This document shows, piece after piece, positions 20,540 to 64,000 of a stretch of 64,000 bases of DNA (within the stretch, counting starts at the first letter, position 1; each line of letters opens with the position of its first letter). This DNA is from a virus. A program made the translations under genes and the position numbers. The stretch lies in the IMG/VR virus record IMGVR_UViG_3300012936_000001, positions 32,001-96,000 of that record; one strand, given 5' to 3'. Below the pieces are notes generated by a model. The model saw only the letters and a list, made by a program, of their open reading frames with translations. It did no database searches and had not been told where the DNA came from.

Positions 20540-21340
20540 GTGAAGATTACCAAAAGAAACCTCAGAAGAATTATTTCAGAAGCGATTGAGTCGAGTATGT
20601 TGTTAGAAAGTGCAAGAACATTTTGGCAATACACCGCGGTAATTACGCTGAACAATGTTGACCTATCGTCTCCCGTTGCACCTCGAAACAACAGGCTATA
20701 TCTTGTTATGGAGAGCGCTGATTGGTTTCATATGCCAAAGTATGCAAGGCTCATAAGTTCTGGTATGTTTGATAACTCTTATAAGATTGCCGAAATGGCA
20801 TCAAAAGAACGCAAGATCCTAGGAATGATGGTTGTGAAGAACCCTGATTCTGGTAGAGCCTATGGCGCAGCAGAAGTCGTTCAGGCAGCCGCAAAAAGAG
20901 GATATGGCCCAGCTCTCTATGACTTGGTGATTGGCGATCAACCGGTTGGAATATATGGCGACAGAGATTCAATTGATCCACGTGCATATGATATTTATGA
21001 TTATTACCTCAATAAAAGAGACGACATTGAAAAACTTCCGTTAGATGATCCAGAACAAAGATACACAAAAGATACAATTGATGACATGATTGCATCAACC
21101 GGTGGAAGTTATTTACCATGGAATTATATCGAAGAACCATCACATTCTCTGTGGCTTCAGGATGCAGCAAATCATGTGTATAAAGGCCCAAGACATCCTA
21201 ATATGCAAGAATATTTACAGGCTGGAGAACTTGCAAAAGAATCATTTGCAGAAAGGTGGAAGATATCCATCAAAGACGTTAACGATTTTTTTGCGAAATT
21301 AGCTTTAGATTTCTTTGATGTAAGAGATAATGAAGGCTAA
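20540..21340 (+). CDS. Putative head-packaged protein with GNAT-like motif
   Basis: N-terminal MKITKRNLRRIISE leader. AAAKRGYGPALYD resembles GNAT acetyl-CoA-binding motif A. Upstream ATATTTA. Confidence 0.45.
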   Translation: MKITKRNLRRIISEAIESSMLLESARTFWQYTAVITLNNVDLSSPVAPRNNRLYLVMESADWFHMPKYARLISSGMFDNSYKIAEMASKERKILGMMVVKNPDSGRAYGAAEVVQAAAKRGYGPALYDLVIGDQPVGIYGDRDSIDPRAYDIYDYYLNKRDDIEKLPLDDPEQRYTKDTIDDMIASTGGSYLPWNYIEEPSHSLWLQDAANHVYKGPRHPNMQEYLQAGELAKESFAERWKISIKDVNDFFAKLALDFFDVRDNEG

Positions 21341-21354
21341 TAAAAGGTTATGTG

Positions 21355-21361
21355 ATACTTA
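21355..21361 (+). promoter_or_regulatory. Putative late promoter ATANTTA
   Basis: ATACTTA upstream of 21385. Confidence 0.6.
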
Positions 21362-21384
21362 TAATAAGACTTAGGAGACTACCG

Positions 21385-21795
21385 ATGAAAATCACCAAAA
21401 GACAGTTAAGAAGAATTATAAAAGAATCCATGAACAGCATGGAGCAAAGCTATATATCCAAGATAAACGAACTTCTTTCGGCCGGCGATTACGAAACACA
21501 CATGCAGGGCATTGAACTCATTAAAGCCCTCAGTGAAGAAATACCAGGATTAAAGAATCATCCGGATCTCATGATTCACTCTGCCCACGACGACGATGGT
21601 GAAGTATTTCAAATTAAACATCCTGTTTATAGATCTACTTTGACAAAAGCAGAAGCAGAATCATTCACAGAATATGATGGGGAAAAAGTATACATAGTCG
21701 ATATACACGAGTCTTCAGACGGAATTGGTACTCGTGTCGAATATGGTTATTCTTTTCCAGGTATGGACAAAGTTTATAATCTACGCCGAAGATAA
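21385..21795 (+). CDS. Hypothetical protein with MKITKRQLRRIIKE leader
   Basis: AGGAG RBS before ATG 21385. Upstream ATACTTA. Confidence 0.6.
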   Translation: MKITKRQLRRIIKESMNSMEQSYISKINELLSAGDYETHMQGIELIKALSEEIPGLKNHPDLMIHSAHDDDGEVFQIKHPVYRSTLTKAEAESFTEYDGEKVYIVDIHESSDGIGTRVEYGYSFPGMDKVYNLRRR

Positions 21796-21848
21796 ATTAT
21801 AAACCTTTGTAAATTATATTATAATAAGACTATCTTACAGGAGATTCG

Positions 21849-24800
21849 ATGAAGATAGTACATATTGCTGATGTTCATTGGCGTGGTCTTACCCGTCATG
21901 AGGAATACAAAAGCTGTTTTAGAGATATGTTTGAGAAGTGTCGAGAATTAGAACCCGATGCAATAGTAATAGCTGGAGATATAGTCCATTCAAAGACACA
22001 GGGCATATCTCCAGAGCTAATTGATTGCCTTAACTGGTGGTTTACAGAGCTGAGTAGAATAAGTCGTGTACATGTACTTCTTGGAAATCATGATGGTCTT
22101 ATTCTTAATTCAGATCGACAAGACGCAATATCTCCTATTCTTAATGCCCTCAATCTTCCAAATGTACATTTGTACAAAGATTCAGATGTATACAAAGATC
22201 CAGACTTTCCGGATGTAAGATGGTGTGCGTTTTCTCCTTTTGACGAAAAAGGCTATTCGAACGTAGTACCAAGGCGTGGAAAAATAAATATTGCACTGTA
22301 TCATGGCGCAGTATGGGGATCACACACTGACATGAACTTTATGTTGGATGGTGATTGCAAAATGGACTTCTTCCGCGGGTTTGATTATGTAATGCTAGGA
22401 GATATACACAAACGTCAGCAATTAGATAAGGACGGAAGAATATGGTATTGCGGTTCTCCTATTCAGCAAAATTATGGAGAATCTGGAGAAAAAGGCTTCT
22501 TGCTATGGGACATAAAGTCAAATTCTGATTTTACTGTCGAGTTTCATCCTATTACTCACAATAATCCATTTGTAACAGTACTTTGGAAAGGATCTGTACA
22601 AGCAACCGTAATGGAATGTATGTCAGTCTGGCCAGCTGGTGCAAGATACAGAATAAGATCCACTACAGAACTAGATCCAAAATCAAAAAGAAAACTAGCA
22701 ACGGTTCTTCGGAGAGAACACGACGCACATGAAGTGGTCTATCAAATTAAATCTAATTCGAAAAATTCAGAAAGAATTAAATCCGAAAAGGTAAAAATAG
22801 AAAACCTATCGGATCCTCATACACATAAAAAGTTATTGAGAGAGTGGTGTGATGATATAGTTGAAGAAAATGGATTCTGGAAAGAGGTCGATAGAATTGT
22901 AGACGAGACCGTTCCAAAGCTATCCGTGCCAGAAGAACAAAAAGGAAATATTTGGTCAATAAGAGAAATGAACTTTGATAATACCTTTGGCTACGGAAAA
23001 GACAATATAATTAATTTTATAAAACTGCAAGGAATTGTTGGGCTGTTTGGAAGAAATAGAAGCGGAAAGTCTTCAATCCCGGGCACAATGATGTATGCTT
23101 TGTATAACTCAAATGATAGAGGTATATCGTCTGTTCAACACGTAATCAACACTAGAAAATCGAACTGTTCTGCTGATATAACTTTTTCTGTTAACGGAAA
23201 ATTATACAGGCTCGAAAGACATTCTGTAAGATACGCTGCGCGCGGAGGAAAAAACGAAGGAGCCATGTCATATCTTTCTCTCTTTGAAGTAAACGACGAA
23301 GGGCAAATAATAAAAGACCTTTCAGGAGAACAAAGAAGAGATACTGAGAAAGTATTAAGGTCACTTATAGGCGCACCAGAAGACTTTATGATGACATCTT
23401 TTGCAGCCCAAGGAAACATGAATTCCTTTATCGGTCAAGGCCCAACAGAAAGAAAAAAGACAATCTCTGGATTTATGGGCCTTGATGTATATGACCAATT
23501 TCAATCTATAGTCAGAGAAGAATCTGCTGGCGTAAAGACCATGTTAAAAAGATTGGCAGAAAAAGACTGGGTAGCGCTTATAAGATCTGAAAGATTAGAT
23601 ATATCAAATCTAGAAGAAAGTATTGAGTACCTAAATGAAAAAATACATACTTTGCAAGAAGAATATGTGTCTCTTCGAGACAAAGCGTCACATGAATCTA
23701 ATGGTGATTTTGTAGATCCTGCCGTGCTGTCTAGAAAAAAGAAGTGGGTAGAGTCAAAAAAAGATTCAATTTTAGATTCTAATCAAAAACTAGAGTCGTT
23801 GAAAGAATCGCTAAATCATAAAAAAACAATTCTTGAAAAATACGAAAATAAAAGAGACAATTTTCCTTTGGAATCATATCAGAGAAGACTAGACCTGCTT
23901 AATTCGTTAAGAAATTCAATGCAGAAAATGCAGTCAAATCTAAAGCAAGAAAAAACAATACTAAGCGGTCAAAAAAATTCTGTTTCCTTACTGAAAGAGG
24001 TGCCGTGCGGAGACGCTTTTCCAACATGTAAATTTATTGCCGAATCACACAGAAACAAGCAGTTAATCAAGGAACAAAAGATTTTAGTTCAAGATCTTGG
24101 AAAGGAAATAAAGCAAGCAAAAGAAAACCTAAAACAATTAGAAGACGAAGGCCTAAGGCAAAAGATCGAAAGATATAATGAACTATGTTCCGCCATTCAG
24201 GATATAAAACTGGATATTGTTGTGAAAGAATCGAAAATACAAAAAGAACAATCTATTGTTGAGACGACGCAAAGAGAGATAGAAAGATTGTCTGATGAAA
24301 TAACAGATATGGAATTAAGAACAGATGAAAAAAAATCAGCTGCCTTGAGAAGGCTACAGCAAAAAATGAAATCTATTAATGTAGAAATAGAGACTGGAAA
24401 GTCTGAATTGAGAAGTTATTCGCAGAAAATAGGTGAAAAGAAAGCAAAAATAAATCAATTACAAAAAGAATCTGAAGAATATGACAGGTTACAAGTAGAA
24501 TGGCAGGTATACGATTATCTTTTGAAAGCCACTAGCTGGAGAGGTATTCCGACCTATATTATGAAGAAACAATTGCCGATAATAAACGAAGAGATTTCAA
24601 ATATATTACAAGATATAGTTGGTTTTACAGTAGAGTTAGACATAACAGATAAAAAGACAGATGTGTTTATCAATTATGGAGATTCAATGCGTCCTATCGA
24701 ATGTGCGTCAGGAATGGAAAAAATGGTTTCATCCATGGCTTTGAGAGTAGCTCTTGGAAATGTTTCTAATTTGAACAAGTCTGACATGTTCATAGTCGAC

Positions 24801-24980
24801 GAAGGATTCGGGGCATTAGATCCCCAGAATCTAGAATCTGTGACTAGCCTATTAAAGAAACTTAAGTCTTATTATCGTCTAATCTTGGTGATTTCTCATG
24901 TTGATGTTATCAAAGATTCTGTTGATGATATAATAGAGATAAGAAAGTCTAGCAACGATTCAAAGGTAGTCTATGAGTGA
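21849..24980 (+). CDS. sbcCD: Fused Mre11/SbcD nuclease and Rad50/SbcC ATPase (T4 gp47-gp46 equivalent)
   Basis: Metallophosphoesterase motifs HIADVH, AGD, LGNHD, LGDIH, YCGS. Walker A GRNRSGKSS, long coiled coil, signature ASGMEK, Walker B/D-loop IVDEGFGALD, H-loop ISH. Confidence 0.92.
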   Translation: MKIVHIADVHWRGLTRHEEYKSCFRDMFEKCRELEPDAIVIAGDIVHSKTQGISPELIDCLNWWFTELSRISRVHVLLGNHDGLILNSDRQDAISPILNALNLPNVHLYKDSDVYKDPDFPDVRWCAFSPFDEKGYSNVVPRRGKINIALYHGAVWGSHTDMNFMLDGDCKMDFFRGFDYVMLGDIHKRQQLDKDGRIWYCGSPIQQNYGESGEKGFLLWDIKSNSDFTVEFHPITHNNPFVTVLWKGSVQATVMECMSVWPAGARYRIRSTTELDPKSKRKLATVLRREHDAHEVVYQIKSNSKNSERIKSEKVKIENLSDPHTHKKLLREWCDDIVEENGFWKEVDRIVDETVPKLSVPEEQKGNIWSIREMNFDNTFGYGKDNIINFIKLQGIVGLFGRNRSGKSSIPGTMMYALYNSNDRGISSVQHVINTRKSNCSADITFSVNGKLYRLERHSVRYAARGGKNEGAMSYLSLFEVNDEGQIIKDLSGEQRRDTEKVLRSLIGAPEDFMMTSFAAQGNMNSFIGQGPTERKKTISGFMGLDVYDQFQSIVREESAGVKTMLKRLAEKDWVALIRSERLDISNLEESIEYLNEKIHTLQEEYVSLRDKASHESNGDFVDPAVLSRKKKWVESKKDSILDSNQKLESLKESLNHKKTILEKYENKRDNFPLESYQRRLDLLNSLRNSMQKMQSNLKQEKTILSGQKNSVSLLKEVPCGDAFPTCKFIAESHRNKQLIKEQKILVQDLGKEIKQAKENLKQLEDEGLRQKIERYNELCSAIQDIKLDIVVKESKIQKEQSIVETTQREIERLSDEITDMELRTDEKKSAALRRLQQKMKSINVEIETGKSELRSYSQKIGEKKAKINQLQKESEEYDRLQVEWQVYDYLLKATSWRGIPTYIMKKQLPIINEEISNILQDIVGFTVELDITDKKTDVFINYGDSMRPIECASGMEKMVSSMALRVALGNVSNLNKSDMFIVDEGFGALDPQNLESVTSLLKKLKSYYRLILVISHVDVIKDSVDDIIEIRKSSNDSKVVYE

Positions 24981-25179
24981 TAGAATAGTGAAAAAAATAT
25001 CGGAAGATTTGATAGTGACCTATCCTAAAGACTGGAAAGAGAAAAAGAAAGATTGTCCTCAGTGTGGCTACGCTTTTAGAGATAAATCTGATGTTATCTC
25101 ATATTTACAATATGGTGTTTGTACAGATTGTAGACTCGAAAATTACAAAAAAGAGTATACTTATAAAGAAAAGGAGTAA
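24973..25179 (+). CDS. Small zinc-finger protein
   Basis: CPQC...CTDC, 68 aa, overlaps the sbcCD stop. Confidence 0.6.
   Translation: MSDRIVKKISEDLIVTYPKDWKEKKKDCPQCGYAFRDKSDVISYLQYGVCTDCRLENYKKEYTYKEKE
25157..25163 (+). promoter_or_regulatory. Putative late promoter ATANTTA
   Basis: ATACTTA upstream of 25184 and the terminase. Confidence 0.6.
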
Positions 25180-25183
25180 GAAA

Positions 25184-25597: not shown

Positions 25598-25598
25598 G

Positions 25599-27179
25599 AT
25601 GGCAGTAACTACAAAGCAAAGACAAATAAAAGAAATAATTAAGTGTGGAAAAGATCCGTCTTACTTCTTTAATAGATATTGCAAAATACAGCATCCAATC
25701 AAAGGTGCCATTCCTTTTAAGACATATCAGTTTCAAGATGATTGCGTCAAAGACTTCGAAGAACATCGGTTCAACATAGTCTTAAAGTCTAGACAGTTAG
25801 GCCTGTCAACGATTTCTGCTGCATACAGTGCTTGGCTGGCTATTTTTCACAAAGACAAAAACATACTTGTTATTGCAACGAAGCTAGCTGTAGCACAAAA
25901 TTTTATAAGAAAGGTAAAATTTCTTATAAAGTCCATGCCTAATTGGCTTCTGCTTCCAGAGATAGTAAATAATAACAAACAGGCTCTAGAGTTTTCGAAT
26001 GGATCGACGATAAAAGCCATTCCAACGTCGGAAGATGCAGGTCGTTCAGAAGCTTTGACACTTCTAATTGTCGACGAGGCTGCTTTTGTAAGAAATTTTG
26101 ATACATTGTGGACTGGTTTGTATCCAACCCTATCAACTGGTGGTCGAGCAATTATTCTGTCTACGCCGAATGGAGTCGGCGGGCAATATTATGATCTGTG
26201 GATGCAGGCAGTTTCAAAAGAGAATATATTCAATCCAATTAAATTGGCTTGGGACGTTCACCCAGAAAGAAATGATGAATGGTATGAAAAAGAAACCAAA
26301 AATATGTCTAGACAACAGATTGCGCAAGAATTATTGTGTGACTTTCAAGCTTCTGGCGACACATTCTTGCAAGTTGAGGATATAGAGTACATCAGAAATT
26401 GGATTCGGCCACCAACAGACAAATGGGGTCCTGATATGAACGTCTGGGTTTGGGATTATCCTCTATCTTCCAAGAAATACGTCATATCAGCTGATGTTTC
26501 GCGGGGCGATGCTAGCGATTATTCCACATTTTACGTAATAGACACAGAATCTTCTTCTGTTGCTGCAGAATATAGAGGAAAATTACCTCCAGATAAATTT
26601 GCGCAGGTCTTAGCAGAAGCTGGAAGAAGATATAACGAAGCATTAATATGCCCAGAAAATAATTCTTATGGATACGCGGTAATTATGAAATTATCTGAGA
26701 TGAATTATAGAAATCTTTGGTTTCAAAACGAAAAAGACCGATATTCTTACATGTACGGCAATAAAGAATTAGGAAAGATAGGATTTCAAACAAATGCAAA
26801 GACTAGAAATCAAATTCTTACAAAACTAGAAGAAGTTTTACGTACAAAGCAAGTAATGATAAAATCAAGTCGACTATACGAAGAACTTAAGACTTTTGTT
26901 TGGAAAAATGGAAAGGCGCAAGCTCAAAAAGGGCAAAACGATGACCTTATTATGGCTCTTGCAATTGGAGTATGGTTATATGACACTAGTCCTCAACTAA
27001 ATAAACACTCATACGATATCAATAAAGCAATGTTACAAGCCTTTTCTGTAAATTCAAACAAATTAAAAGATTCAGTTATTGATCCAAATCCAAAATATGA
27101 TAAAGATGGAAATAACGAAAGAAAAATATGGGGAAAGAACAATCCTTATTACTCGAATTTTAAGTGGGTAATAGAGTAG
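25599..27179 (+). CDS. terL: Terminase large subunit (T4 gp17-like)
   Basis: Walker A KSRQLGLST, Walker B LLIVDEAAF, coupling motif STPNG, nuclease motifs ISADVSRG and DDLIMALA. Confidence 0.95.
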   Translation: MAVTTKQRQIKEIIKCGKDPSYFFNRYCKIQHPIKGAIPFKTYQFQDDCVKDFEEHRFNIVLKSRQLGLSTISAAYSAWLAIFHKDKNILVIATKLAVAQNFIRKVKFLIKSMPNWLLLPEIVNNNKQALEFSNGSTIKAIPTSEDAGRSEALTLLIVDEAAFVRNFDTLWTGLYPTLSTGGRAIILSTPNGVGGQYYDLWMQAVSKENIFNPIKLAWDVHPERNDEWYEKETKNMSRQQIAQELLCDFQASGDTFLQVEDIEYIRNWIRPPTDKWGPDMNVWVWDYPLSSKKYVISADVSRGDASDYSTFYVIDTESSSVAAEYRGKLPPDKFAQVLAEAGRRYNEALICPENNSYGYAVIMKLSEMNYRNLWFQNEKDRYSYMYGNKELGKIGFQTNAKTRNQILTKLEEVLRTKQVMIKSSRLYEELKTFVWKNGKAQAQKGQNDDLIMALAIGVWLYDTSPQLNKHSYDINKAMLQAFSVNSNKLKDSVIDPNPKYDKDGNNERKIWGKNNPYYSNFKWVIE

Positions 27180-27184
27180 ACCAC

Positions 27185-27191
27185 ATAATTA
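27185..27191 (+). promoter_or_regulatory. Putative late promoter ATANTTA
   Basis: ATAATTA upstream of the portal. Confidence 0.6.
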
Positions 27192-27212
27192 AAGTTACCC
27201 AGAGGAAAAATT

Positions 27213-29237
27213 ATGGCAGAAGAATCTCTTTTTAGAAGGTTAACGAAGTTATTTCGTTCCGGGCCTACTATCAAAAGAAAAGTGAGAAACATTTCAAAGC
27301 AGGAGCAAAATGCATCTTCTGCCGTTGAATTATTTAAGAAGCACCATTCAGATGTATACAATTCGACCCTCAGTGCCTATGGCACTTTTGATAGAATGGC
27401 AAGATATTCAGACTTTTCCGAAATGGAAGCAACTCCGGAGATAGCTTCAGCACTTGATATTTATTCTGAAGAGTGTGTATCTCCAGATGTAGAAGGAAAG
27501 TGTCTACACATTACTAGCGACAACAGAAAAATAAAAGAACTATTAGAAACTTTGTTCTATGACACTTTAAATATTGATTTCAATCTAGTAATGTGGACCA
27601 GAAACCTTTGTAAATACGGTGATTTTTTCATGTTTAATGATGTGCATCCCGAATATGGAGTAATTAATGCCTATCCGATTCCCATCACAGAAATGGAAAG
27701 AGAAGAAGGGTTTGATAAAGATGACCCATCAGCAATACGATTTAGATGGATCACACAGGGAAATCAGGTTCTGGAAAATTGGCAAATATGTCATTTTCGG
27801 CTACTTGGTAATGATGCTTTTTTACCTTATGGTTCTTCCGTTTTGGAGTCTGCTAGAAGAATATGGCGGCAGCTCATTCTTATCGAAGATGCAATGCTGG
27901 TATATAGGGTTGTGCGTTCTCCTGAACGCCGTGTATTTTATATCGATGTTGGTAATGTCCCTCCAGAAGACGTAGCAAATTATATTGAACAAGCAAAAAC
28001 AGCGTTAAGAAGAGACATGGTTGTAGCCAAAGGATCTGGAACTGTTGACCTTAGATATAATCCAATGGCTGTCGATGAAGATTACTACATTCCTGTTCGT
28101 GGCGGAGATTCTGGTACAAGAATAGATAATTTGGCAGGCGGTCAGAATACTTCGGCTATTGAAGACGTTGAATACATACAGAAAAAATTATTTGCCGCGT
28201 TGAAAATACCAAAAGCTTACTTGGGATACGATGAAGAGATCGGAGCAAAAGCAACCCTTGCACAAGAAGATATAAGGTTCAGTCGTACAATACAAAGAAT
28301 ACAGAAGACCATAATTTCAGAACTCAACAAATTGGCAATGATCCATCTCTACGCACACGGTTTTGAGGGTGAACAATTGCTTGATTTTTCCTTGGGATTG
28401 TCTAACCCATCATCCTTAGCTCAACAGCAAAAATTAGAGTTAATAAGAACAAAATTTGACATTGCCGGCGCAGCTCCAGAGGGAATGGTTTCTCGATCAT
28501 GGATATATCGCAACATATTCTCTTTTACAAGGGACGAAATCGAAAGAATACAAAGAGAGAAGGTCGAGGATAAAATATCAGATGCAGAGCTTGAAAAAGC
28601 CGGTAAAGAACCAGAAGGCGGAGAAGAAGGCGGAGACGCCGGGGGCGGAGGACTTTTTGCCGGTGATTATGTTTCTGGAGATATATTAGATGCAAATAGC
28701 GGTGCAGTTCCTACTGCCGCATTAAAAGAACTCGACGAAGATGATTCGCTAGACGAGTTCGACGTTGATGATTTGGACGAAATAGACCTAGAAGGTATTC
28801 AGTCTAACAATTCTAAAATTAAAGCATCGTCATCCGCGAAGAATGCTTTTGGCGGAAATCTAAAAAAGAAAAGAGACAGAACAGTAAGAGATGGTCCTGC
28901 AAGTACTCATATGCCAGATTTTAAGAAAATGGTTCTAACTGGTAAAGCAGGAAGATCGCAAGATACACTGAATAAACCATATGATAGTGATTTTCTAAAA
29001 AATCCGTTTGGAAACACTTTCTTAGAAACAAAAGATCCAAAATCTCTGGCTGATTACATATTGGGACTCGAGTCAAATGACGAGCCCGTTTACAGAGGCT
29101 ATCGTCCAGTAATGACAAAAGAACTACAGAATATGTTTGAAAGATTAGGAAGCAAATTAGGGAAAAGGTCTATAATTAATGAAACACGGGAATTCTTAAC
29201 TGAAGAATTCGATATTGAACTCGAAGAAGACGAATAG
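27213..29237 (+). CDS. Portal protein (T4 gp20-like) with long acidic C-terminal extension
   Basis: EDAMLVYRVVRSPERRVFYIDVGNVP, EDYYIPVRGG, IEDVEYIQKKLFAALKIP. Confidence 0.93.
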   Translation: MAEESLFRRLTKLFRSGPTIKRKVRNISKQEQNASSAVELFKKHHSDVYNSTLSAYGTFDRMARYSDFSEMEATPEIASALDIYSEECVSPDVEGKCLHITSDNRKIKELLETLFYDTLNIDFNLVMWTRNLCKYGDFFMFNDVHPEYGVINAYPIPITEMEREEGFDKDDPSAIRFRWITQGNQVLENWQICHFRLLGNDAFLPYGSSVLESARRIWRQLILIEDAMLVYRVVRSPERRVFYIDVGNVPPEDVANYIEQAKTALRRDMVVAKGSGTVDLRYNPMAVDEDYYIPVRGGDSGTRIDNLAGGQNTSAIEDVEYIQKKLFAALKIPKAYLGYDEEIGAKATLAQEDIRFSRTIQRIQKTIISELNKLAMIHLYAHGFEGEQLLDFSLGLSNPSSLAQQQKLELIRTKFDIAGAAPEGMVSRSWIYRNIFSFTRDEIERIQREKVEDKISDAELEKAGKEPEGGEEGGDAGGGGLFAGDYVSGDILDANSGAVPTAALKELDEDDSLDEFDVDDLDEIDLEGIQSNNSKIKASSSAKNAFGGNLKKKRDRTVRDGPASTHMPDFKKMVLTGKAGRSQDTLNKPYDSDFLKNPFGNTFLETKDPKSLADYILGLESNDEPVYRGYRPVMTKELQNMFERLGSKLGKRSIINETREFLTEEFDIELEEDE

Positions 29238-29246
29238 GAGCAAAAA

Positions 29247-30086
29247 ATGTCAAAAAAATCCCACAACAAAAAAAGAAATGTCGGGATTATATACGAGCAA
29301 CTGATACAATATATATCTGATCGCCTCGTCAATAATCAGACCACTAGTGCTAACAAGGCAAAGAGAATAGTAAAAAAGCATTTTGTCAAAGATAGTCAGT
29401 TGTATAAAGAGTATAGGTTGTTTATGGCTCTATCAGATACTCATTCGGTAGATCCATCTTTGGCAACACAGATAATTTCAGAAGCTCGAAGAGGTTCTAG
29501 AATACACGACAAAGAAAGATTAAAGAAAGAAAAGTCTATTTTAATAAGAGATATAAATTATCATCTAGGCCAAGATTTTTATAAAAGAAAAATAAAAGAA
29601 TATAAAAAGTTTGCTACAATTCAAGTGCTCTTGAACGAATGGCGATGCGGAAATATATGTGTTGAATATGAAAAAAAATTACACGAAATGCTTACAGAAA
29701 AAAAATCAATTACAAGCTTAGAAGAAGAGAAAAATAAAGATGTTAATAGACTAGTATTGAAATTGGCAGAAGAAAAATTCAATAAAAAGTATTCGAGTTT
29801 GTTAAATGAACAACAAAAAGCAATATTGAACGAATATGTTTTTTCTCAATCCAGCAAAGACTATACAAAGATAAAATCTTCTATCAAAAAAATAAAAGAA
29901 AAAACTGTCGACGCATTGACCAAATATTCTATAGATTGTAAAAATGAAACAGTCAGCAAAAAGATTCAGCCAGTTATAACAGAAGTTCGAAATTTAAGTG
30001 AAAAAAATATAAACGACGAAACTATAAAAAAAGTTTTATCTATAGTTCAATTAAGAAATGAACTTTTGGAGAATAACAATGAGTGA
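29247..30086 (+). CDS. Hypothetical basic protein between portal and protease (possible prohead core component)
   Basis: AGGAG RBS, HNKKRNVGIIYE N-terminus, position in the head module. Confidence 0.55.
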   Translation: MSKKSHNKKRNVGIIYEQLIQYISDRLVNNQTTSANKAKRIVKKHFVKDSQLYKEYRLFMALSDTHSVDPSLATQIISEARRGSRIHDKERLKKEKSILIRDINYHLGQDFYKRKIKEYKKFATIQVLLNEWRCGNICVEYEKKLHEMLTEKKSITSLEEEKNKDVNRLVLKLAEEKFNKKYSSLLNEQQKAILNEYVFSQSSKDYTKIKSSIKKIKEKTVDALTKYSIDCKNETVSKKIQPVITEVRNLSEKNINDETIKKVLSIVQLRNELLENNNE

Positions 30087-30684
30087 TTTGAAATTATTAA
30101 CTGAGTTTAATGCATGGGAATTTGACAAAGAAAAAATGTTGAACGAAAGAACCAGTTCAAACAGATACGTTATGAAAGGTATTCTTCAAAAGGCAGACAC
30201 TCTAAACCAAAATGGAAGAATATATCCGCAGGATATCTTGGAAAGAGAGGTGCGAAATTATCAAAAATTTATTGCCGAAAATAGAGCGCTTGGCGAATTG
30301 GATCACCCGGATTCTTCTGTAGTAGAGTTGAAAAATGCTTCCCATATTGTTCGAGAAGCTTATATGGACGGAAAGATATGTTATGGAACAGTAGAAATTC
30401 TTGATACTCCTGCTGGCAAGATTCTTAAGTCTTTGGTTGACAACGGAGTGACATTAGGTATATCGTCCAGAGGCGTAGGGTCTACGAGATCTGAAGGAGA
30501 TTATCAGGTTGTTCAAGACGATTTTCAACTTATCTGCTGGGATTTCGTGTCGGAACCATCAACCCCCGGCGCCTTCATGATGAAAGAAGCAAAAGAAATA
30601 AAGCCATCCGATCTTAAGAAAGTATTTAATAAATCGGATAGAATTGATAGAATATTCAACAACATATTAGATTGGAGAAAGTAA
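30079..30684 (+). CDS. Prohead maturation protease (T4 gp21-like)
   Basis: NQNGRIYP, ALGELDHP, ASH, LDTPAG, GISSRGVGS, DFVSEPSTPGA. GGAG RBS before ATG 30079. Confidence 0.93.
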   Translation: MSDLKLLTEFNAWEFDKEKMLNERTSSNRYVMKGILQKADTLNQNGRIYPQDILEREVRNYQKFIAENRALGELDHPDSSVVELKNASHIVREAYMDGKICYGTVEILDTPAGKILKSLVDNGVTLGISSRGVGSTRSEGDYQVVQDDFQLICWDFVSEPSTPGAFMMKEAKEIKPSDLKKVFNKSDRIDRIFNNILDWRK

Positions 30685-31167: not shown

Positions 31168-31170
31168 AAA

Positions 31171-31587
31171 ATGAAATTAAAACGTTCAGTTCTAAAACAG
31201 CTAATAAAAGAATGCCTAGTAGAGATTCTCATAGAGGGAATAGATTCCGAAGGACAAGAAGACCGTTTGGTTGAAGCAGCTGTCTCTTCTAGAAAACAGC
31301 AATTCAAAAAACCTCAAAACGACTATGTACCAGCATCATCTAAGAGTCAAAGAAAACCTATGATTAATGAACATGCTGTCTCTGCCATGGCCGGCGGTGA
31401 CAGCATTATGGCAGATATATTTCGTGACACCGCCTCAACGACCCTGCGAAATCAAGGCATGAAGAACGAAAACGCAAGAATACCTGCCGACAATGCCGCC
31501 GCTGTCGTTGCAGATCACGATCCAACAGAACTTTTCGAAGGTGCAGGAAACTGGGCAAAATTAGCATTTATGGGATCAGAAAAATAA
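31171..31587 (+). CDS. Hypothetical head-module protein with MKLKRSVLKQLIKE leader
   Basis: AGGA RBS. Leader resembles those of 20540 and 21385. Confidence 0.55.
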   Translation: MKLKRSVLKQLIKECLVEILIEGIDSEGQEDRLVEAAVSSRKQQFKKPQNDYVPASSKSQRKPMINEHAVSAMAGGDSIMADIFRDTASTTLRNQGMKNENARIPADNAAAVVADHDPTELFEGAGNWAKLAFMGSEK

Positions 31588-31650
31588 ATTGCAATAATAT
31601 ATTTCTGTCTCATAATTAGATTTATAGTCAAAAATTGTTAGGAGAAAACA

Positions 31651-31947
31651 ATGAGAAGAAAAAGATCCATGAGTGCAAAAGCATTCCGAAATTTTGTTAT
31701 TAGAGAAGCCAGAAAACTTCAAAAAGAAGCGGTATCTGGAAAGATCGAAGACGTTTCAAAAGTTAAGGCAAAAGAAGTTGATGCAGATGGATATGCTGAT
31801 ACGTTAGAGCAAGATATAGATTATATTAAAGCACTGAAAATCAAAGAAAATAAGATACGTAGACAGCATGCAAGAATGAAGCGCCAATTGAAAATGATCC
31901 AAGAAAGAAAAAGAAGATTGCGTGCTAGAGTTCTTAAGAACATATAA
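31651..31947 (+). CDS. Small basic coiled-coil protein (possible prohead core protein)
   Basis: AGGAG RBS, ATAATTA upstream, Arg/Lys-rich. Confidence 0.55.
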   Translation: MRRKRSMSAKAFRNFVIREARKLQKEAVSGKIEDVSKVKAKEVDADGYADTLEQDIDYIKALKIKENKIRRQHARMKRQLKMIQERKRRLRARVLKNI

Positions 31948-33211: not shown

Positions 33212-34915
33212 ATGTCTAATATCTTTGATGAAGCGATTGCAGACGCAAAAAAACTAAAAGAAATTGCGGAACAAAATGCAAAAAATAGGATTATAGAGGC
33301 TGTTACACCTAAAATAAAAAGGCTTATCGAAGCTGAAATTGCTGGTGAAGACATGGACCTGGAAGATGCAGAAGAAGATTCTGATGATTATGAAGAGTTC
33401 ACAGCCGGCGATACTGCCATGGATGTGGATTCCTCTTCTGGGCTGGATCTAAGTTATAACGAACCTGTGGAACCAGAAATGCCAGCAGATATGGGGTCAC
33501 CTATGATGACCGACGACATAGATCTGGATGATGGCCTTGGCCTAGAAATAGAAGACGATAAACCAGAAAAGAACGTTGTCATCAACGTCACGGTAGAAAG
33601 TGCCAGAAAATCTGCGTTGTCAAAATTGAGAAAAAGAAAAGCAGTAAAATTACTTGAAAGTCTAAGAAGTGCTAAAAATGCAAGCAAAAAAAGAAAAATG
33701 CTTTCTGAATTGGCAAAACTACAAAGAGAGTGCATATCTAGTAGTAGTACTGTTGACAAAAAATTAGCAAGAAAATTATCAACTTTATTAAAGGAGACAA
33801 ATATGTCTAGAAGAACACGAAAAAACTGGTTTTTATTCGAAGGCGAAGGTGAAGGCGAAGACGAGGACTTGGATCTCGGCGGAGACGAAGATCTTGACCT
33901 TGAAGATGAAGACGAAGAAGTGGACGTCGATGCTATTAAGTCAGCAATCGAAGAATTAGCTGATGCAGTCGGTCTTGAAGTAATGGACGAGGACGAGGAC
34001 GAAGACGAAGACGTAGAGGGTGAAGAAGAGGAAGAGGAAGAAGATCTTGACCTTGGAGAAGCCGATATGGATGATGTCGATATGGCAGAGGGAATATACG
34101 AAGCTGACATGGATGAAGACGAGGATCTCAAAGAAGACGATGATAAAGTCGTTGAGATTAACGAGTCTGCTCTTCGTAGAGACCTTATGAGAATGAAGCG
34201 CAATGCTCGTAACCGTCGTTCTCGACGACTTGCAGAATCACGTCGTTCAAGAAGCGCAAGCAGAAGACGCCGCAGACTTTTTGAAGCAGAAGCAGTAGAT
34301 GCTGCTAGCCATTTTGGCGGCGGATCTGCCGAACAAGAAATGTTCATTGATGTCGACGAAAACACTCTTATTAATGCTCTCGCAGAAGAACTTGGAGACG
34401 CACACGATCTTGACATGAACATAGACGGATCTGGAGATGCTTCCAAAGCAGCCGGCCATTTTGGCGGCGGAAAAGCTCAGGCTATTCGTGAAGCAAGACG
34501 AAGAAGAGCAATCGCTCGTCGTGCAAAAATTACAGAGTCTCGCGCAAAGCGTGCAGTACTGGCTGAACGCAAGAAAGCTGCAGCTGCAAAGCGTGAACTC
34601 AAAGAATCAAATCTTTTTAATGCAAAATTGTTGTATGTAAACAAATTGATGCAACAGCATGTTCTAAACAAAAAGCAACAGCGTGCGATTGTTGAGGCTC
34701 TTGATAATGCCAAGACGTTACGTGAAGCAAAACTACTTTTCGAAGGGCTTTCTGATTCTCTTTCGAAAGCAAAAAGAAAATCAGGCAACAGCCTAAATGA
34801 ATCCAGAGTTATTTCCGGAAGATCATCAACTGCAACTCGTAGCTCTGCTCCTGCAACTACTCAAATGAGTTCGGACCTTTCTAGATGGCAAAAACTCGCT
34901 GGAATCAAAAAGTAA
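33212..34915 (+). CDS. Prohead scaffold/core protein (T4 gp22-like)
   Basis: Directly upstream of the MCP. FDEAIADAKKLKEIAEQNAK N-terminus, long acidic tracts, ELKESNLFNAKLLYVNKL, C-terminal RWQKLAGIK. Confidence 0.8.
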   Translation: MSNIFDEAIADAKKLKEIAEQNAKNRIIEAVTPKIKRLIEAEIAGEDMDLEDAEEDSDDYEEFTAGDTAMDVDSSSGLDLSYNEPVEPEMPADMGSPMMTDDIDLDDGLGLEIEDDKPEKNVVINVTVESARKSALSKLRKRKAVKLLESLRSAKNASKKRKMLSELAKLQRECISSSSTVDKKLARKLSTLLKETNMSRRTRKNWFLFEGEGEGEDEDLDLGGDEDLDLEDEDEEVDVDAIKSAIEELADAVGLEVMDEDEDEDEDVEGEEEEEEEDLDLGEADMDDVDMAEGIYEADMDEDEDLKEDDDKVVEINESALRRDLMRMKRNARNRRSRRLAESRRSRSASRRRRRLFEAEAVDAASHFGGGSAEQEMFIDVDENTLINALAEELGDAHDLDMNIDGSGDASKAAGHFGGGKAQAIREARRRRAIARRAKITESRAKRAVLAERKKAAAAKRELKESNLFNAKLLYVNKLMQQHVLNKKQQRAIVEALDNAKTLREAKLLFEGLSDSLSKAKRKSGNSLNESRVISGRSSTATRSSAPATTQMSSDLSRWQKLAGIKK

Positions 34916-34961: not shown

Positions 34962-36920
34962 ATGTCATTTACATTGCAAAAGTTGACAGAGGGCATTCGT
35001 CAACGTCACATGGGTGCCCAACATCAACGACTTACAGAAAAATGGAACCGCACAGGTCTTCTTCGTGGTCTTAACGGACAAAACAAAGAAAACATGGCAG
35101 TTCTTCTCGAAAACCAAGCCGCTCAACTTTTGAGAGAGGCAAACACTCTTGGAGCTACTAGTGCTAGTGGAACTGGTCCCTCTGCTTCCGGAGACATTCG
35201 CGGATTCCAGAACGTTGCATTCCCAATCGTTCGCCGAGTATTTGGTGGATTGGTTGCAAACGATCTCGTATCTATTCAGCCCATGAGCCTTCCAGCTGGA
35301 TTGCTCTTCTATCTTGATTACACTTACGGTTCAAGCGTCGGTGGAGCAGATGGAACAGTTGACTCTACTGTTTATCAACAAGGTCAGTCAATCTACAACA
35401 ACCCTGCTGGAAAAGGAATTCAGTCTGGTTCTTTGGCTGTAGGTGGACAATACGATCTTGCTGGTGCAGGATTCTCACGAAAGCATACAGCTGCTGTTCT
35501 GGCCGAATCAAATACACTCGGAACAAACATTGTAACAGGTGTTTGGAGTCCTAGCGACGCATTCCAAAATGGAGCTAGCGTTTCTGATGCTTACATCTCT
35601 GCAGTTGGACAGTTTACTGGTTCTAACGCTCGATTGATGCAATATGATCCTCAGATTCGTACTGCTCTTGATAATAACGAGCTCGGCGCTGTTCTTTTTG
35701 CTATGATCCCTACATCTTTGATGACTGGATCTAATTCAGAACAAGCTGATCTTACCATGATCAAGGACATTGCACTTACTGCTGAAAAGGCCGGAGAAGC
35801 TACAAACGCTGCATTGCTTACTCAGTGGGGAGAAAAATATCAAGGTGGAAACAACGTCAAGAACCTCCGACGTCTCAACCAATTGGTTACGTGGGACGGC
35901 TCTGGTCTTCCTGTGCATGCTCCTCTTGCTGAATACAATACTTCAAATGCTTATGTATTGATGGTTGTAAAAGCGACAAAGGGCGCAATCCCTACTCTTG
36001 CAACTTTGGCTGCCGAGCAAATTGGTGATCTTTCTTTCCCAATTAAGCCTACCAGAACTTCTGGCGACAGCGGCGATTCAATCTTGGTTCCAACTTTTGA
36101 ATCTAACATGCTTGCTGGTGCTTCAAACGCTCCTGTTATTCCTGAAATCGACATTAAGATCGAATCTATCTCTGTTACCGCGGTAACTAGAAAGCTTCGT
36201 GCTCGTTGGTCTCCAGAACTTGCTCAGGACTTGAATGCATACCACTCTATGGATGCAGAAGTTGAGTTGACTCAGATTCTTTCTGAGCAAATTGCTCTTG
36301 AACTTGACCGTGAGATTCTTAACGACCTTCTTACTCAGGCAAATGGTGCTAACCTTTACTGGTCACGCGCTCCTGGTAAATTCGTCAACAAAGAAACCGG
36401 TTCTCAGATTGCTGTCTCAACTTCTGTGGCAAGTCCTTCTTTCACTGGTACAGTTCGTGAATGGTACGAAACTCTTACAGAGACCATCATCGACGCTGCT
36501 AACACTATTCACCGTAAGACTCTTCGTGGATCTGCTAACTTCATCGTGGTTGGACCTGATGTTGCTACAATCCTTGAAAGCTCTGTTCTTTACAAGCCTG
36601 TATACAGCCTTGACGGTGACGGGCAAGTTGGTAACCCAATGACTATTGGCGCCGAGAAAGTTGGTAACTTGAGCAATCGTTTCACAGTCTACAAGGATCC
36701 TTACTTCCCACGTAACAAGATCTTGATCGGTTACAAAGGTGGTTCTTATCTTGAAACTGGTTATGTATATGCTCCTTACGTGCCTCTTATTGTTACCCCT
36801 ACGATCTTTGCTCCTGAGGACTTCACTCCTCGTAAGGGTGTAATGACTCGTTACGGTAAGAAGATGGTTCGTTCTGACTTCTACGGAACTGTTACATGCT
36901 TGGATATGCACATCATCTAA
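34962..36920 (+). CDS. Major capsid protein (T4 gp23-like)
   Basis: LLENQA, FPIVRRVFGGLVANDLVSIQPMSLP, RKLRARWSPELAQDLNAYH, EIDREI-like ELDREI, YAPYVPL, PRKGVMTRYG. GGAG RBS before ATG 34962. Confidence 0.97.
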   Translation: MSFTLQKLTEGIRQRHMGAQHQRLTEKWNRTGLLRGLNGQNKENMAVLLENQAAQLLREANTLGATSASGTGPSASGDIRGFQNVAFPIVRRVFGGLVANDLVSIQPMSLPAGLLFYLDYTYGSSVGGADGTVDSTVYQQGQSIYNNPAGKGIQSGSLAVGGQYDLAGAGFSRKHTAAVLAESNTLGTNIVTGVWSPSDAFQNGASVSDAYISAVGQFTGSNARLMQYDPQIRTALDNNELGAVLFAMIPTSLMTGSNSEQADLTMIKDIALTAEKAGEATNAALLTQWGEKYQGGNNVKNLRRLNQLVTWDGSGLPVHAPLAEYNTSNAYVLMVVKATKGAIPTLATLAAEQIGDLSFPIKPTRTSGDSGDSILVPTFESNMLAGASNAPVIPEIDIKIESISVTAVTRKLRARWSPELAQDLNAYHSMDAEVELTQILSEQIALELDREILNDLLTQANGANLYWSRAPGKFVNKETGSQIAVSTSVASPSFTGTVREWYETLTETIIDAANTIHRKTLRGSANFIVVGPDVATILESSVLYKPVYSLDGDGQVGNPMTIGAEKVGNLSNRFTVYKDPYFPRNKILIGYKGGSYLETGYVYAPYVPLIVTPTIFAPEDFTPRKGVMTRYGKKMVRSDFYGTVTCLDMHII

Positions 36921-48174: not shown

Positions 48175-48819
48175 ATGTCAAAATCACTTAAAAAACTTTT
48201 GCTCGAGTCAATAGATGGTGCAACTGTTAATAATTTCCAAGAGATAGTCGACAACCATGGGTTCTTAGGAACCAAAGGCATTATAGTGACAGAAAAAGAT
48301 CTGATCGGATCTGATAAATATGTTCTCTTTGCATCTCCCTCCGGTCTCAAGCACATCGAAGAAAGGCACAAGGATCCTAATATGCCAGGTTCTGTTTTCG
48401 TACAGGGTATCAATCTTTATAACGTCATGCAAGACATAATTCAAGATAACCCTCCAAATGACATGCGACAATTTCCAAAAGTAAAATGGATAGAAGTAAA
48501 AATGAACGATGTTGTTGGCTATTCTGGAATATATCTAGACTCCCCAGAAAAAGTTGCAAAGATGAAAGATTTTGCAACCCCCGGAGGAAGAGGAGAGATT
48601 GTTAAAGTAGCTCCTGGAAAATTATATCCAACAAACGCCATGTCGCTGATTACGATAAAAATTGGAGACTTATCAGATGGAAGGGAGGCTCTATCTCTGA
48701 TTACTTTATTTCCTGGTGATGGGTCTATTGATGGAGTCGAGATTCCTTCTTCAAGGGATGAATTTGCAGCAAAAGGATTTTATTTTCAACTTCCTCCAGA
48801 ATCTCCAGCACTAAAATAG
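48175..48819 (+). CDS. Hypothetical protein, possible BECR-fold RNase with (L)LLE leader
   Basis: AGGAG RBS, MSKSLKKLLLES, GLKHIEERH and LITLFPG motifs. Confidence 0.4.
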   Translation: MSKSLKKLLLESIDGATVNNFQEIVDNHGFLGTKGIIVTEKDLIGSDKYVLFASPSGLKHIEERHKDPNMPGSVFVQGINLYNVMQDIIQDNPPNDMRQFPKVKWIEVKMNDVVGYSGIYLDSPEKVAKMKDFATPGGRGEIVKVAPGKLYPTNAMSLITIKIGDLSDGREALSLITLFPGDGSIDGVEIPSSRDEFAAKGFYFQLPPESPALK

Positions 48820-50171: not shown

Positions 50172-50429
50172 ATGCAAAATAAAGAAACTCAACTTCTAAT
50201 AATAGAGTATCTAAATGCAGGGCTTGTTCCCTATGTTCCATTTTCAAATATACACTTTAACAAAAAGCCAACAAGAAAACAAAAAAGAAAGTTTCGAAAA
50301 TTATGGAGAAAACTTTCCGACGAAATAGCAAAATCAGATCATGGTACATATCCGTCGTTCAAGAAAAGAAGGTTAAGAAAGACCATTGTCTTAAATGAAA
50401 TGTTTTCAAGAATAGAAAGGCCAAAATGA
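50172..50429 (+). CDS. Small basic hypothetical protein
   Basis: AGGGA RBS, RKQKRKFRKLWRK. Confidence 0.55.
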   Translation: MQNKETQLLIIEYLNAGLVPYVPFSNIHFNKKPTRKQKRKFRKLWRKLSDEIAKSDHGTYPSFKKRRLRKTIVLNEMFSRIERPK

Positions 50430-50863
50430 ATTTACAAGAAGTAAAGGTAGGCGATTGTTGTTTTTTTCTCGTGCGTGGTGTGAATACACCAAAATTTGGT
50501 GAGATTTACAAAATTAGCGAAAAAGAAGAAATCATTCATGTAATAGAAGTCAAGGACTCGAAGTACTATTCAGTACATTCTAGAAATTTTGCATGGAACA
50601 AAGAAGACTTAAAAGATAAAAAATGGGAAGATCCACATAATTATAATGACACAGTGGAGAATGCTAATGAAAAAGAAACTACTAAAAGAAGCAGTAATGT
50701 TCATAACAGGAAGAAGGCCTCAGATTCAAATAAAAGGAGAATCAAAAAAAGCAAAGGCACTTCTGAGAGTGATGGTAGCAAGCAAAAATTTATACGAAGC
50801 ACTGGAAAGCAAAAATCCAAAACTAAAAGAAATAGAAAAGCTAGTAGAAATAAAAAAGGTTAG
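50426..50863 (+). CDS. Hypothetical protein (SH3-like N-terminus, basic tail overlapping next gene)
   Basis: ATGA coupling. VKVGD...GEIYKI...IHVIE pattern. The last ~65 codons overlap 50667..50909. Confidence 0.45.
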   Translation: MNLQEVKVGDCCFFLVRGVNTPKFGEIYKISEKEEIIHVIEVKDSKYYSVHSRNFAWNKEDLKDKKWEDPHNYNDTVENANEKETTKRSSNVHNRKKASDSNKRRIKKSKGTSESDGSKQKFIRSTGKQKSKTKRNRKASRNKKG

Positions 50864-50909
50864 AGCCTTCCAGTTCAAAAAGATTACAGGAAACGATTGG
50901 CCGTTATAA
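50667..50909 (+). CDS. Small basic helical protein
   Basis: GGAG 7 nt before ATG 50667. MKKKLLKEA...WPL. Confidence 0.55.
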   Translation: MKKKLLKEAVMFITGRRPQIQIKGESKKAKALLRVMVASKNLYEALESKNPKLKEIEKLVEIKKVRAFQFKKITGNDWPL

Positions 50910-55352: not shown

Positions 55353-55361
55353 GATGCCAAA

Positions 55362-59130: not shown

Positions 59131-59135
59131 TCACC

Positions 59136-62400: not shown

Positions 62401-62590
62401 AACAGGAACGACTATCGACGATATATATCGAGTCAACGGCGTAGAACATTCGTTTTCCCCCAATGACTTTAAGACACAGGTTCAAATGATTCCTGTGAGT
62501 CGGTCAGGAGAGTTCGTGTCCACCCAGTCTCAAATTACGCAAGCTATTAAGGAACTCGAGGATATAAAGCAAAAGTATAGCGATGAATAA
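59426..62590 (+). CDS. Putative baseplate hub protein (gp27/gpD-like, enlarged)
   Basis: Follows the LysM gene. FLIEYGWSHP and C-terminal LEMFGCP...GQQYFVDF.TGT..DDIY.V.GVEHSF...F.T resemble hub proteins. Confidence 0.6.
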   Translation: MMSRETNLELAIADLGRLLGVRTQHDLMRVLFRKATDKNFSDEQIALEQFDSKSEDTELTKIISALINITDGGMLISDFQEVWSSFLSKAEPEDAEKYVDSQMIPFTILSNGKNIQNVSEISPKEMSIFSNLEASSTPEKWNPSFGSVQFHNVALNFSNRYSSAATVFLSAIPTVELSRCVPYLDVKLITNTKTVDARAQQPPDANAISLFRFLYGKEPFRNEDSSSLINIKLINERLETDKYGPDGDLVGGEDSVKTTVESTAAGMEIFTSPQTLVNGDEAFYDLEPIDSTNADVHLNRKTPIIDKFRPFMTLNNFSLTVQPTFGTLSTKQGSMNITLHDRSRLAEISQLTSPGEFQNVEFLIEYGWSHPDSDSPYGKILNAFRTRQKFISIGSSYSFNPQGEVAIDIKLLTKGSNQFNYALVTDAKIQPLLEKMKNIIQIMNKLEKGVKSEYESELKDIMNGGEILGKLNSIEGMVSLSAKQISSLEKSILKLDKEINNANLDSLIKDLKDSVGLGDKSEPSTIKRYKSELERSISELMKDIENQPDPYLKAIDPSLGIVNTKTVNKVVGYEEVENPEWTKSQKVPGMEGKKRVGPRKIVDIPKYIKKAKREKQTIVLSSKYVSLGKLLYLFVASPLASKHLYDEIQFLFYPLNAYASFARNADVASFPILKSKFQELFRKRLERNPTITLGQFVGFINKYFFSNLASEVFGFGNIYERDQKTAAAKLRAKFKSKKAKRKAIDTKTDILTKAYGGTGQKPKFKKPALSLHMECVPASGDSERTIMRIHFFDKSTSSFESYADLWNSTKSSYLSGVQTTISNSVKNLKNIVESEDKKNAGNASMAISGHEQLMQSQLSKLDALGLFVPIDDQGKVAQSDSDLIGSTTLTTSKVKYYRLRGGPLGLRHYFARNMPTIKYGTEYSAILNASVSTQSDPAMQMVHMERQGRKENLPGSEVNDGLPLVTFPISLSLEMFGCPLINFGQQYFVDFQTGTTIDDIYRVNGVEHSFSPNDFKTQVQMIPVSRSGEFVSTQSQITQAIKELEDIKQKYSDE

Positions 62591-62626
62591 AATATAAAAT
62601 TGCGTTTTGCTTGTTACTATAGGTTC

Positions 62627-63667
62627 ATGATATCTATCTCAAAAAAAATTATTGGATCTGAACAGGACCTAGTATACGACAATGGCTTTAAATGGGGAAC
62701 CATCGAAGAGAATGATCTCTTAATTGGTCCCGGCAAATATTCTATTAGCCCGCTTCTAAGAATCTTTCAGGCTCCTGATTATTCTTTTATCGATAAAAAA
62801 TATATTACAATGGCCAAAGCTATGGGGCTATCCGATCCTAAATTTTACAAGATTATCGGTAAAAATCATATAAAAAATATAAGAAATACTTTAGAATTAC
62901 TTACTCCTACGATAAAAAAGATTCAAGAGTCTAGATATCTTAATGTGTATAAGAGAACCCAGGATTTTTTGTACTCTTTCGAAAAAGTAAAGGCTGACAG
63001 AACCAGATTCGCGTCACTTAAGGCAATGGGAACTAGATATGATGGCATTTCCTTTCGAGATGGCTACATTCATCCTCCACGATACCATCGTGATCGAACA
63101 AAGACAGGCAGATTGACAGTATCTTCAGGAATTCCTATACTTACGATGAAAAAAGAACACAGAAATGTAATGGAGGCTAAGCAGATAGACTACTCTTCTA
63201 TGGAACCTAGGTTCTTGTTGGCTTTGTCTGGCAAAAAAGTAGAAGGAGACCTTTACCAATGGGTCGCCGACCAATTAGACATAAAGAAAGATCGATCCTA
63301 TGCAAAGATAGCTGTTATATCGTCTATGTATGGCTCAAAAGTAGTGCCAGAAGTTACAGAACTATTTGGTCTTGATATATGGATACAGAAACTAGAAGAA
63401 TGCGTTACGGATGGAATTATAGAATCTTACTGGGGCAGACCTATAGTCGTTGGTGAATCAAAAGGGCATAAGCTTTTGGCACTATGGTTGCAGTCTACAG
63501 CTGCAGATGCAGCGCTTCTCGGATTCGCTAATTTATTTGAAGAAAGAAAAGATCTAATTCCTCATTGCGTTATTCATGATGCGTGCATATTTAATGGTAA
63601 CAATGTTCCAAAATATATTAATATAAATGAGAACATCAAGATGCCAATAGATTGCACGGAGCTATGA
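62627..63667 (+). CDS. Miniature family-A DNA polymerase (polymerase core only)
   Basis: TKTGRL, motif A IDYSSMEPR, motif B RSYAKIAVISSMYG, LQSTAAD, motif C VIHDA. No exonuclease domains; about 346 aa. Confidence 0.75.
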   Translation: MISISKKIIGSEQDLVYDNGFKWGTIEENDLLIGPGKYSISPLLRIFQAPDYSFIDKKYITMAKAMGLSDPKFYKIIGKNHIKNIRNTLELLTPTIKKIQESRYLNVYKRTQDFLYSFEKVKADRTRFASLKAMGTRYDGISFRDGYIHPPRYHRDRTKTGRLTVSSGIPILTMKKEHRNVMEAKQIDYSSMEPRFLLALSGKKVEGDLYQWVADQLDIKKDRSYAKIAVISSMYGSKVVPEVTELFGLDIWIQKLEECVTDGIIESYWGRPIVVGESKGHKLLALWLQSTAADAALLGFANLFEERKDLIPHCVIHDACIFNGNNVPKYININENIKMPIDCTEL

Positions 63668-64000
63668 ATGAAATCATTGTGGGAACACATATTACTTGAA
63701 CAGGAAAAACAAGAAAAGACCTATCCGACGTATACAGCAAAGCCAGAATCGATTTGGCGAGGCATTAGATATAATTCTATAGACGGCGCCGTGGTTCAAA
63801 GAGAGCGATGTAACACTGATCCAGATGGGTTATTGAACGACCTTAAGGTTTCTGCAGGACAGAATAAAGAAGCGCTCAGCGAAACCGAAGTAATAGAGGA
63901 CTTGTACAAGATATATAATCAAGCAAATGAAAACAGCGTTTTATCAGACGTTGTTTTATCAACAGAACTTGTGCAAAATTCTTCTGGCACCAGAAAGGGA
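63668..64000 (+). CDS. Hypothetical protein, 3'-truncated, with MKSLWEHILLE leader
   Basis: ATG directly follows the TGA of the pol gene. Frame is open to the window end. Confidence 0.5.
   Translation, partial: MKSLWEHILLEQEKQEKTYPTYTAKPESIWRGIRYNSIDGAVVQRERCNTDPDGLLNDLKVSAGQNKEALSETEVIEDLYKIYNQANENSVLSDVVLSTELVQNSSGTRKG

Follow-up and report, generated by a model that had tools for sequence, protein, structure and literature searches.

The capsid-targeting sequence (CTS) of bacteriophage T4 reads MKTYQEFIAE. CTSs of 10-19 residues lie at the N-terminus of the T4 internal proteins, where they bind the scaffolding core and are then removed by the gp21 protease; residues 8 and 10 (P3 and P1) determine processing, gp21 itself carries LIE-9, and the proteins that remain after cleavage are diverse (PMC9026906, PMC3012670, PMC5694885). 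In the giant phages phiKZ, 201phi2-1 and SPN3US (gp175 and gp245 proteases), many head proteins, ejection and inner-body proteins included, are likewise processed on the C-terminal side of a Glu within a short motif, with redundant propeptide sites, and the diverged paralogues gp53 and gp54 of SPN3US have identical N-termini (PMC5694885). The analysis presented here concerns a 64,000-nucleotide stretch of viral DNA (the window), which spans bases 32001-96000 of the 167,118-bp contig IMGVR_UViG_3300012936_000001 from IMG/VR, and in which two proteins start with a short, basic leader ending in Ile-x-Glu. On balance, its sequence and the analogy with T4 favor a capsid-targeting propeptide that would be clipped like the T4 CTS, while being longer, basic and more widely used.

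The leader was searched for with a profile trained solely on leaders from other IMG/VR phages, the sequences of this genome being left out. In the 167-kb genome, nine strict leaders were recovered at E<1e-4. On the coding strand, all nine start exactly at a start codon (ATG or GTG), and a wide gap in score separates them from the best further match in six frames (E 0.4). The consensus is MK[IL][TS]KRQL[KR]RII[KR]E, with a net charge of +5 over residues 2-13. An earlier reading of the window, referred to here as the first-pass annotation, had described such a leader as basic and amphipathic: the basic character stood, whereas amphipathicity was only weakly supported by a hydrophobic-moment test. 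Two of the nine strict leaders fall in the window, both in the short form discussed below (in the sequences given here, a slash follows the Glu). The first gene (20540-21340, + strand; 266 amino acids (aa), GTG start) begins with (M)KITKRNLRRIISE/A and matches the profile at 37.4 bits (E 5.5e-10), and the second (21385-21795, + strand; 136 aa), preceded by an AGGAG Shine-Dalgarno sequence, begins with MKITKRQLRRIIKE/S and scores 39.1 bits. The remaining seven are at genome positions 107239, 134906, 162177, 162913, 163337, 163762 and 164274.

The proteins that follow these leaders are unrelated to one another, as had been proposed. When 25 leader and leader-like proteins were compared by BLASTP after trimming the first 30 residues, no mutual similarity was found except in one pair. 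The cargoes of 20540 and 21385 are both acidic (isoelectric point (pI) 4.9 in each case), and the leader cargoes in the window gave no match in PHROGs or Pfam. In particular, a homologue search with the 20540 cargo returned only the protein itself and one 89%-identical fragment, making it an orphan, and AlphaFold2 run without an alignment yielded no fold (pLDDT 34).

The genomic setting of the two genes was also as first described, between two replication genes. Since primase and Mre11-Rad50 adjoin in four relatives (gap 0-117 nt), the 1.34 kb that separates them here (window 20509-21848) and holds 20540 and 21385 is an insertion peculiar to this genome. Each inserted gene has its own late-type, promoter-like ATANTTA motif: ATATTTA (20511-20517, + strand) 29 nt upstream of 20540 and ATACTTA (21355-21361, + strand) 30 nt upstream of 21385. 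ATANTTA is the most enriched gapped 7-mer at positions -45 to -15, where it precedes 25 genes, mainly structural ones, against 2.1 expected. In the form (C)ATA[ACT]TTA it is found 22-40 nt upstream of structural-gene starts (for example at window positions 27185, 33178, 38167 and 41216), and ATANTTA is conserved in the four relatives before the portal, scaffold-like and 38197-type genes, a distribution suggesting that it is likely the late promoter element of the clade. An inserted cassette with a structural-gene promoter motif supports capsid targeting for 20540 and 21385. The view that all leader genes are late genes was rejected, as the large leader arrays of the relatives lack ATANTTA; the proposed association of leader and motif thus holds before these two genes and not for the arrays. 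As a separate observation on this locus, the Mre11-like (SbcD) and Rad50-like (SbcC) parts are fused in a single 1043-aa open reading frame (ORF; window 21849-24980), and the fusion is present in the four relatives. In T4, gp47 and gp46 are separate genes.

The leader is not confined to this genome. A scan of IMG/VR with a degenerate DNA pattern for residues 1-12 only, in which the ATG start and Ile12 were fixed, matched 116 stretches and gave 228 distinct leader proteins. At positions outside the search pattern, Glu14 was present in 226 of the 228 and Lys or Arg at position 13 in 220. The 228 proteins are encoded by 214 different 42-nt leader DNAs that use all six Leu codons, all six Arg codons and all Ile codons; such varied DNA behind a constant peptide points to selection on the peptide itself and not on a DNA repeat. 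Clustering of the 210 complete proteins gave 144 cargo clusters, of which 107 hold a single member; the median length is 102 aa, cargo lengths span 41-458 aa and the median cargo pI is 4.4, so that the notion of a portable tag is upheld. The accompanying notion of diverse effector domains is not: no Pfam domain was found in any of the 60 longest cargo representatives, and, the cargo being functionally dark, the claim is unsupported. A region-restricted search of a 5.8-billion-protein collection gave 839 clusters with the leader, none informatively named, and the ESM Atlas provided a weak lead only, a viral cluster with a GNAT acetyltransferase domain in 15% of its members. In the four relatives, strict leaders number 19-36 per genome. 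They occur chiefly in tightly packed arrays that reach about 30 genes of similar size and acidic composition, and leader genes also stand alone as insertions between conserved genes.

Two forms of the leader can be distinguished. The short form, exemplified by 20540 and 21385, has a small residue after Glu14. The long form has Glu15 and, in 89% of cases, a second (L/I/V/M)xE that most often ends at residue 22 (residue 27 in this genome), compared with 34% for a second site in the short form. These two forms fit redundant propeptide sites and so support the leader being a propeptide.

A protease that may act on such sites is encoded in the genome. The gp21-like protease that the first-pass annotation had placed at 30079 (30079-30684, + strand) is a member of Peptidase_S77, the T4 gp21 family (PF03420, 93.1 bits against a cut-off of 27; phrog_207, E 3e-50). 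It aligns to T4 gp21 (PDB 5JBL) with an E of 6e-16, the catalytic His lying in ELDHP and the Ser in ISSRG; the deposited chain of 5JBL has Ala at both catalytic positions and would thus be an inactive double mutant. A Peptidase_S77 protease was encoded by nine of the nine long leader-bearing contigs tested. Within the genome, (L/I)xE is densest in three proteins of the head module, of scaffold-like and core-like type, in which it exceeds composition shuffles (n=5000). The highest density in the genome belongs to a scaffold-like acidic protein (33212-34915, + strand; 567 aa, pI 4.7, with long Asp/Glu tracts), which has 24 sites against 10.2 in shuffles, none of the 5000 shuffles reaching 24. 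A conserved 279-aa protein between portal and protease (29247-30086, + strand), at the position of T4 gp67/68 and with an N-terminal ...GIIYE conserved in relatives, has 14 against 4.7, again with none of the 5000 reaching that number, and the head-module protein at 31171 has 6 against 1.3 expected (shuffle p 0.0006). In the same test, LxD and ExL, which served as controls, were flat. Such a distribution would be expected of a phage whose protease keeps the T4 specificity and degrades the core, and it suggests that (L/I)xE behaves like the recognition site of a gp21-type protease. In the scaffold-like protein, the Asp/Glu tracts are very long and take turns with helices rich in Arg/Lys; good conservation is limited to the C-terminal third and to three of the four relatives.

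Shorter, looser N-termini of related type form a class of their own. [LI][LI]xE ending at residues 7-20 was present in 25 of 151 proteins compared with 3.7 expected, and still in 14 compared with 3.4 when the strict set was removed (p 8e-6), with no enrichment of the control motifs LxD, LxQ and AxE at N-termini. Short hydrophobic-hydrophobic-x-E N-termini are therefore enriched as a class, individual members being candidates only. The N-termini quoted in the first-pass annotation all exist where it had placed them. It had treated them as examples of one leader: 20540 and 21385 indeed carry the strict form, whereas the N-termini of 8-11 aa are T4-like propeptide candidates and belong to the separate class. 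The comparison it drew with the protease and the major capsid protein (MCP) held for the latter. The gp23-like MCP (34962-36920, + strand) starts with MSFTLQKLTE/GIRQ, its LTE/G is kept in five of five phages (this phage and four syntenic relatives), and a second site, RLTE/KW, ends at residue 26, whereas LTE-9 of the protease is kept in just two of the five. Two further genes of the head module belong here. The 138-aa protein at 31171-31587 (+ strand) has the leader-like N-terminus MKLKRSVLKQLIKE/CLVEILIEG, with the pattern K.L[IV]KE/CLVEIL.EG kept in four of four relatives, and is probably a prohead core protein. The basic 98-aa protein at 31651-31947 (+ strand), which has its own ATAATTA motif, starts with ...AFRNFVIRE/, and its orthologues in the four relatives, with ...LLRKLVLEE/KRRMQE (pattern ...LLRKLVLEE/K..M.E), come nearer to the strict leader. 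Both are conserved core-type head proteins and not variable cargo.

The likeness to the T4 system (the CTSs of IPI, IPII and IPIII and the propeptides of Alt and gp24) thus extends over several levels. All the T4 CTS features that can be looked for in sequence were found: location at the extreme N-terminus, an (L/I)-x-Glu end, unrelated cargo and a gp21-family protease in the same phage. The systems further share scaffold and core proteins rich in the motif, and cargo genes that vary between relatives (PMC9026906, PMC3012670). They differ in that the leader described here has 14-27 residues, a charge of +5 to +8 and a nearly invariant sequence, whereas in T4 few CTS positions matter; in that there are 9-36 tagged genes per genome here, compared with a handful in T4; and in that the cargo is mostly small and acidic, the present system being known from sequence alone. 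By eye, the leader and the T4 CTS have no similarity beyond an M-K start and a hydrophobic-x-E end, the peptide being too short for statistics. Compared with phiKZ, 201phi2-1 and SPN3US, the differences are that the motif of those phages is (S/A/G)-x-E, that their propeptides often exceed 100 residues, that their proteases are far more diverged from gp21, and that they are not known to have one uniform leader on dozens of unrelated proteins.

Among cultured phages, the nearest relative by MCP (44% identity) is the Flavobacterium phage vB_FspM_immuto (Immutovirus). This phage also has a T4-type head module with an S77 protease, its MCP starts with MELNQLFE/G, and several hypothetical proteins have leader-like hydrophobic-x-E N-termini, for example at 113188 (MKKSQLRQIIKE/A), 117631 and 118632 of NC_055915.1. 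It differs in having heterogeneous leaders and one weak match to the leader profile (15.7 bits), and no large leader arrays were seen in the 25 kb examined (NC_055915.1, 110001-135000). Immuto could serve as an experimental model. A tblastn search of 50,697 cultured-phage records with a 28-aa leader gave no match at E<=1, the query being too short to imply absence, and the leader peptide strings were not mentioned in the literature searched. While the underlying principle is already known from T4, no description appears to exist of the strict basic leader with its two-site architecture, of its use in 9-36 genes per genome or of its presence in hundreds of metagenomic clusters.

A plausible sequence of events can be outlined on this basis. 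The basic helix formed by residues 2-13 would dock a newly made protein onto the prohead core, which would be built around the acidic scaffold-like 33212 together with the core-like 29247, 31171 and 31651; the opposite charges of leader and scaffold suggest that the scaffold may be the docking surface. After closure of the shell, the protease 30079 would cut after Glu14 in I-(K/R/S)-E, before the small P1' residue of short-form leaders such as those of 20540 and 21385, and in the long form it would also cut after the second (L/I/V/M)-x-E, at residue 22 or 27. Cleavage would free mostly small, acidic cargo in the head, and this cargo would leave with the DNA at infection.

Several observations weigh against this scheme. 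Lys5, Leu8, Ile11 and Ile12 vary as little as Glu14, which is what a docking helix would need; the constancy of the Glu is therefore not specific, and it is the whole peptide that is invariant and not only the cleavage positions. The co-occurrence of leader and protease is weak evidence, because all T4-like phages, to our knowledge, carry an S77 protease. The acidic cargo is unlike the basic IPII and IPIII of T4 and is not obviously suited to packed DNA, and (L/I)xE inside the cargo gives a mixed picture, being depleted relative to LxD in the IMG/VR set and enriched in the cargo of this genome. The large arrays of the relatives are tightly packed small genes that, in the absence of the late-type motif, resemble early-gene clusters. 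Finally, the independent profile misses 31171, 31651 and their orthologues (131365 gave no match either), and their link to the strict leader is one of pattern only.

The main rival explanation draws on the same observations. The leader could be an uncleaved helix that docks onto a shared partner outside the capsid, such as a host or phage hub protein, nucleic acid or a membrane, the I-x-E being incidental. Invariance of all 12-14 residues, well beyond P3 and P1, is what such a helix would show, the arrays of the relatives would be the early genes that they look like, and small, acidic, domain-free cargo resembles many early host-takeover proteins. This explanation is nevertheless regarded as unlikely. 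Against it stand the second (L/I/V/M)xE, which 89% of long leaders have at a fixed distance, the conserved N-terminal (L/I)xE peptides on head-module proteins and MCP, the enrichment of the motif centered on scaffold and core proteins, and the structural-type promoter motifs before 20540 and 21385.

Cleavage without capsid targeting is considerably harder to sustain. In this case the leader would be a pro-sequence removable by the head protease, keeping the cargo inactive or marking it for timed processing or degradation, and the cargo, not being injected, would do its work within the infected cell. A basic leader on an acidic cargo is suggestive of intramolecular masking, but the invariant 14 residues exceed the needs of a cleavage site, and T4 gp21 is active only within assembled proheads, so that its substrates must be inside (PMC5694885, PMC9026906); this explanation is thus considered improbable. 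Equally doubtful is the idea that the leader is not portable and marks one fast-evolving paralogue family, made up of tandem copies that can no longer be recognized as related in their C-terminal parts: the long tandem arrays of similar-sized, acidic proteins are in line with it, but it is opposed by the spread of cargo over 41-458 aa and 144 clusters and by single leader genes inserted between conserved genes, and it concerns origin and would be compatible with a targeting function.

Single members of the looser class are found elsewhere in the window. In the tail region, a candidate gene of 214 aa (48175-48819, + strand) has the short N-terminus MSKSLKKLLLE/S and is an orphan, with no relative in the four related genomes or IMG/VR. 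An 80-aa candidate ORF (50667-50909, + strand) starts with MKKKLLKE/AVMF and has its own ATAATTA (50637) and GGAGA (50656). It overlaps the 3' end of the gene at 50426-50863 in another frame, but end-to-end conservation in relative G001, together with its own promoter-like motif and Shine-Dalgarno sequence, speaks against a spurious alternative-frame ORF. The overlap of this ORF, in the +1 frame, with the 145-aa gene amounts to about 200 nt, both frames being conserved in G001, and the pair (50426-50909) lies directly upstream of a 1459-aa tape-measure-like gene at 50973; the two may be overlapping genes or a pair of chaperones linked by a frameshift. At the end of the window, a 200-aa candidate gene running beyond it (63668-64000, + strand) has the N-terminus MKSLWEHILLE/Q. 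One orthologue was found, in which the first 10 residues (MKSLWEHILL) are identical and followed by SE, with 36% overall identity.

The source contig has 39% GC and almost every gene on one strand. Its completeness is estimated at 62% (CheckV) and related phages measure 200-293 kb, so the 167-kb contig is probably a jumbo-phage fragment, and the nine strict leaders are then a minimum count. The phage that carries the leader is T4-like and uncultured, and probably a jumbo phage. The T4-type head module includes a large terminase at 25599 and a gp20-like portal at 27213, in addition to the genes described above. Among cultured-phage records, the closest capsid proteins are only 38-47% identical and come from Flavobacterium phage immuto, Microcystis phage Mel-JY01, Rhodothermus phage RM378 and uncultured huge phages, and no nucleotide-level relatives were found in these records. 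The complete 293-kb genome of relative G002 (C1:167000-186000, ORFs 9270 and 11262) carries two MCP paralogues in tandem, both with about 61-62% identity to the MCP of this phage, an arrangement that recalls T4 gp23 and gp24.

If the leader is indeed a capsid-targeting propeptide, one 14-residue peptide would mark the packaged, and probably injected, repertoire of widespread uncultured aquatic jumbo phages. It would lead directly to candidate first-strike proteins, hundreds in number and without homologues of known function, and the CTS principle of T4 would prove scalable, from a few proteins there to a tenth of all genes here. The portable leader and its protease could also be used as a packaging tag in phage engineering. 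A bolder extension, put forward only tentatively and with more doubt than the targeting function itself, is that each of these jumbo phages loads 20-36 small acidic proteins, about a tenth of its genes, by means of a scaffold-binding leader and injects them ahead of gene expression, for example as DNA mimics or other anti-defence factors. In that case the leader could be used to pick hundreds of injected proteins directly out of marine metagenomes by sequence.

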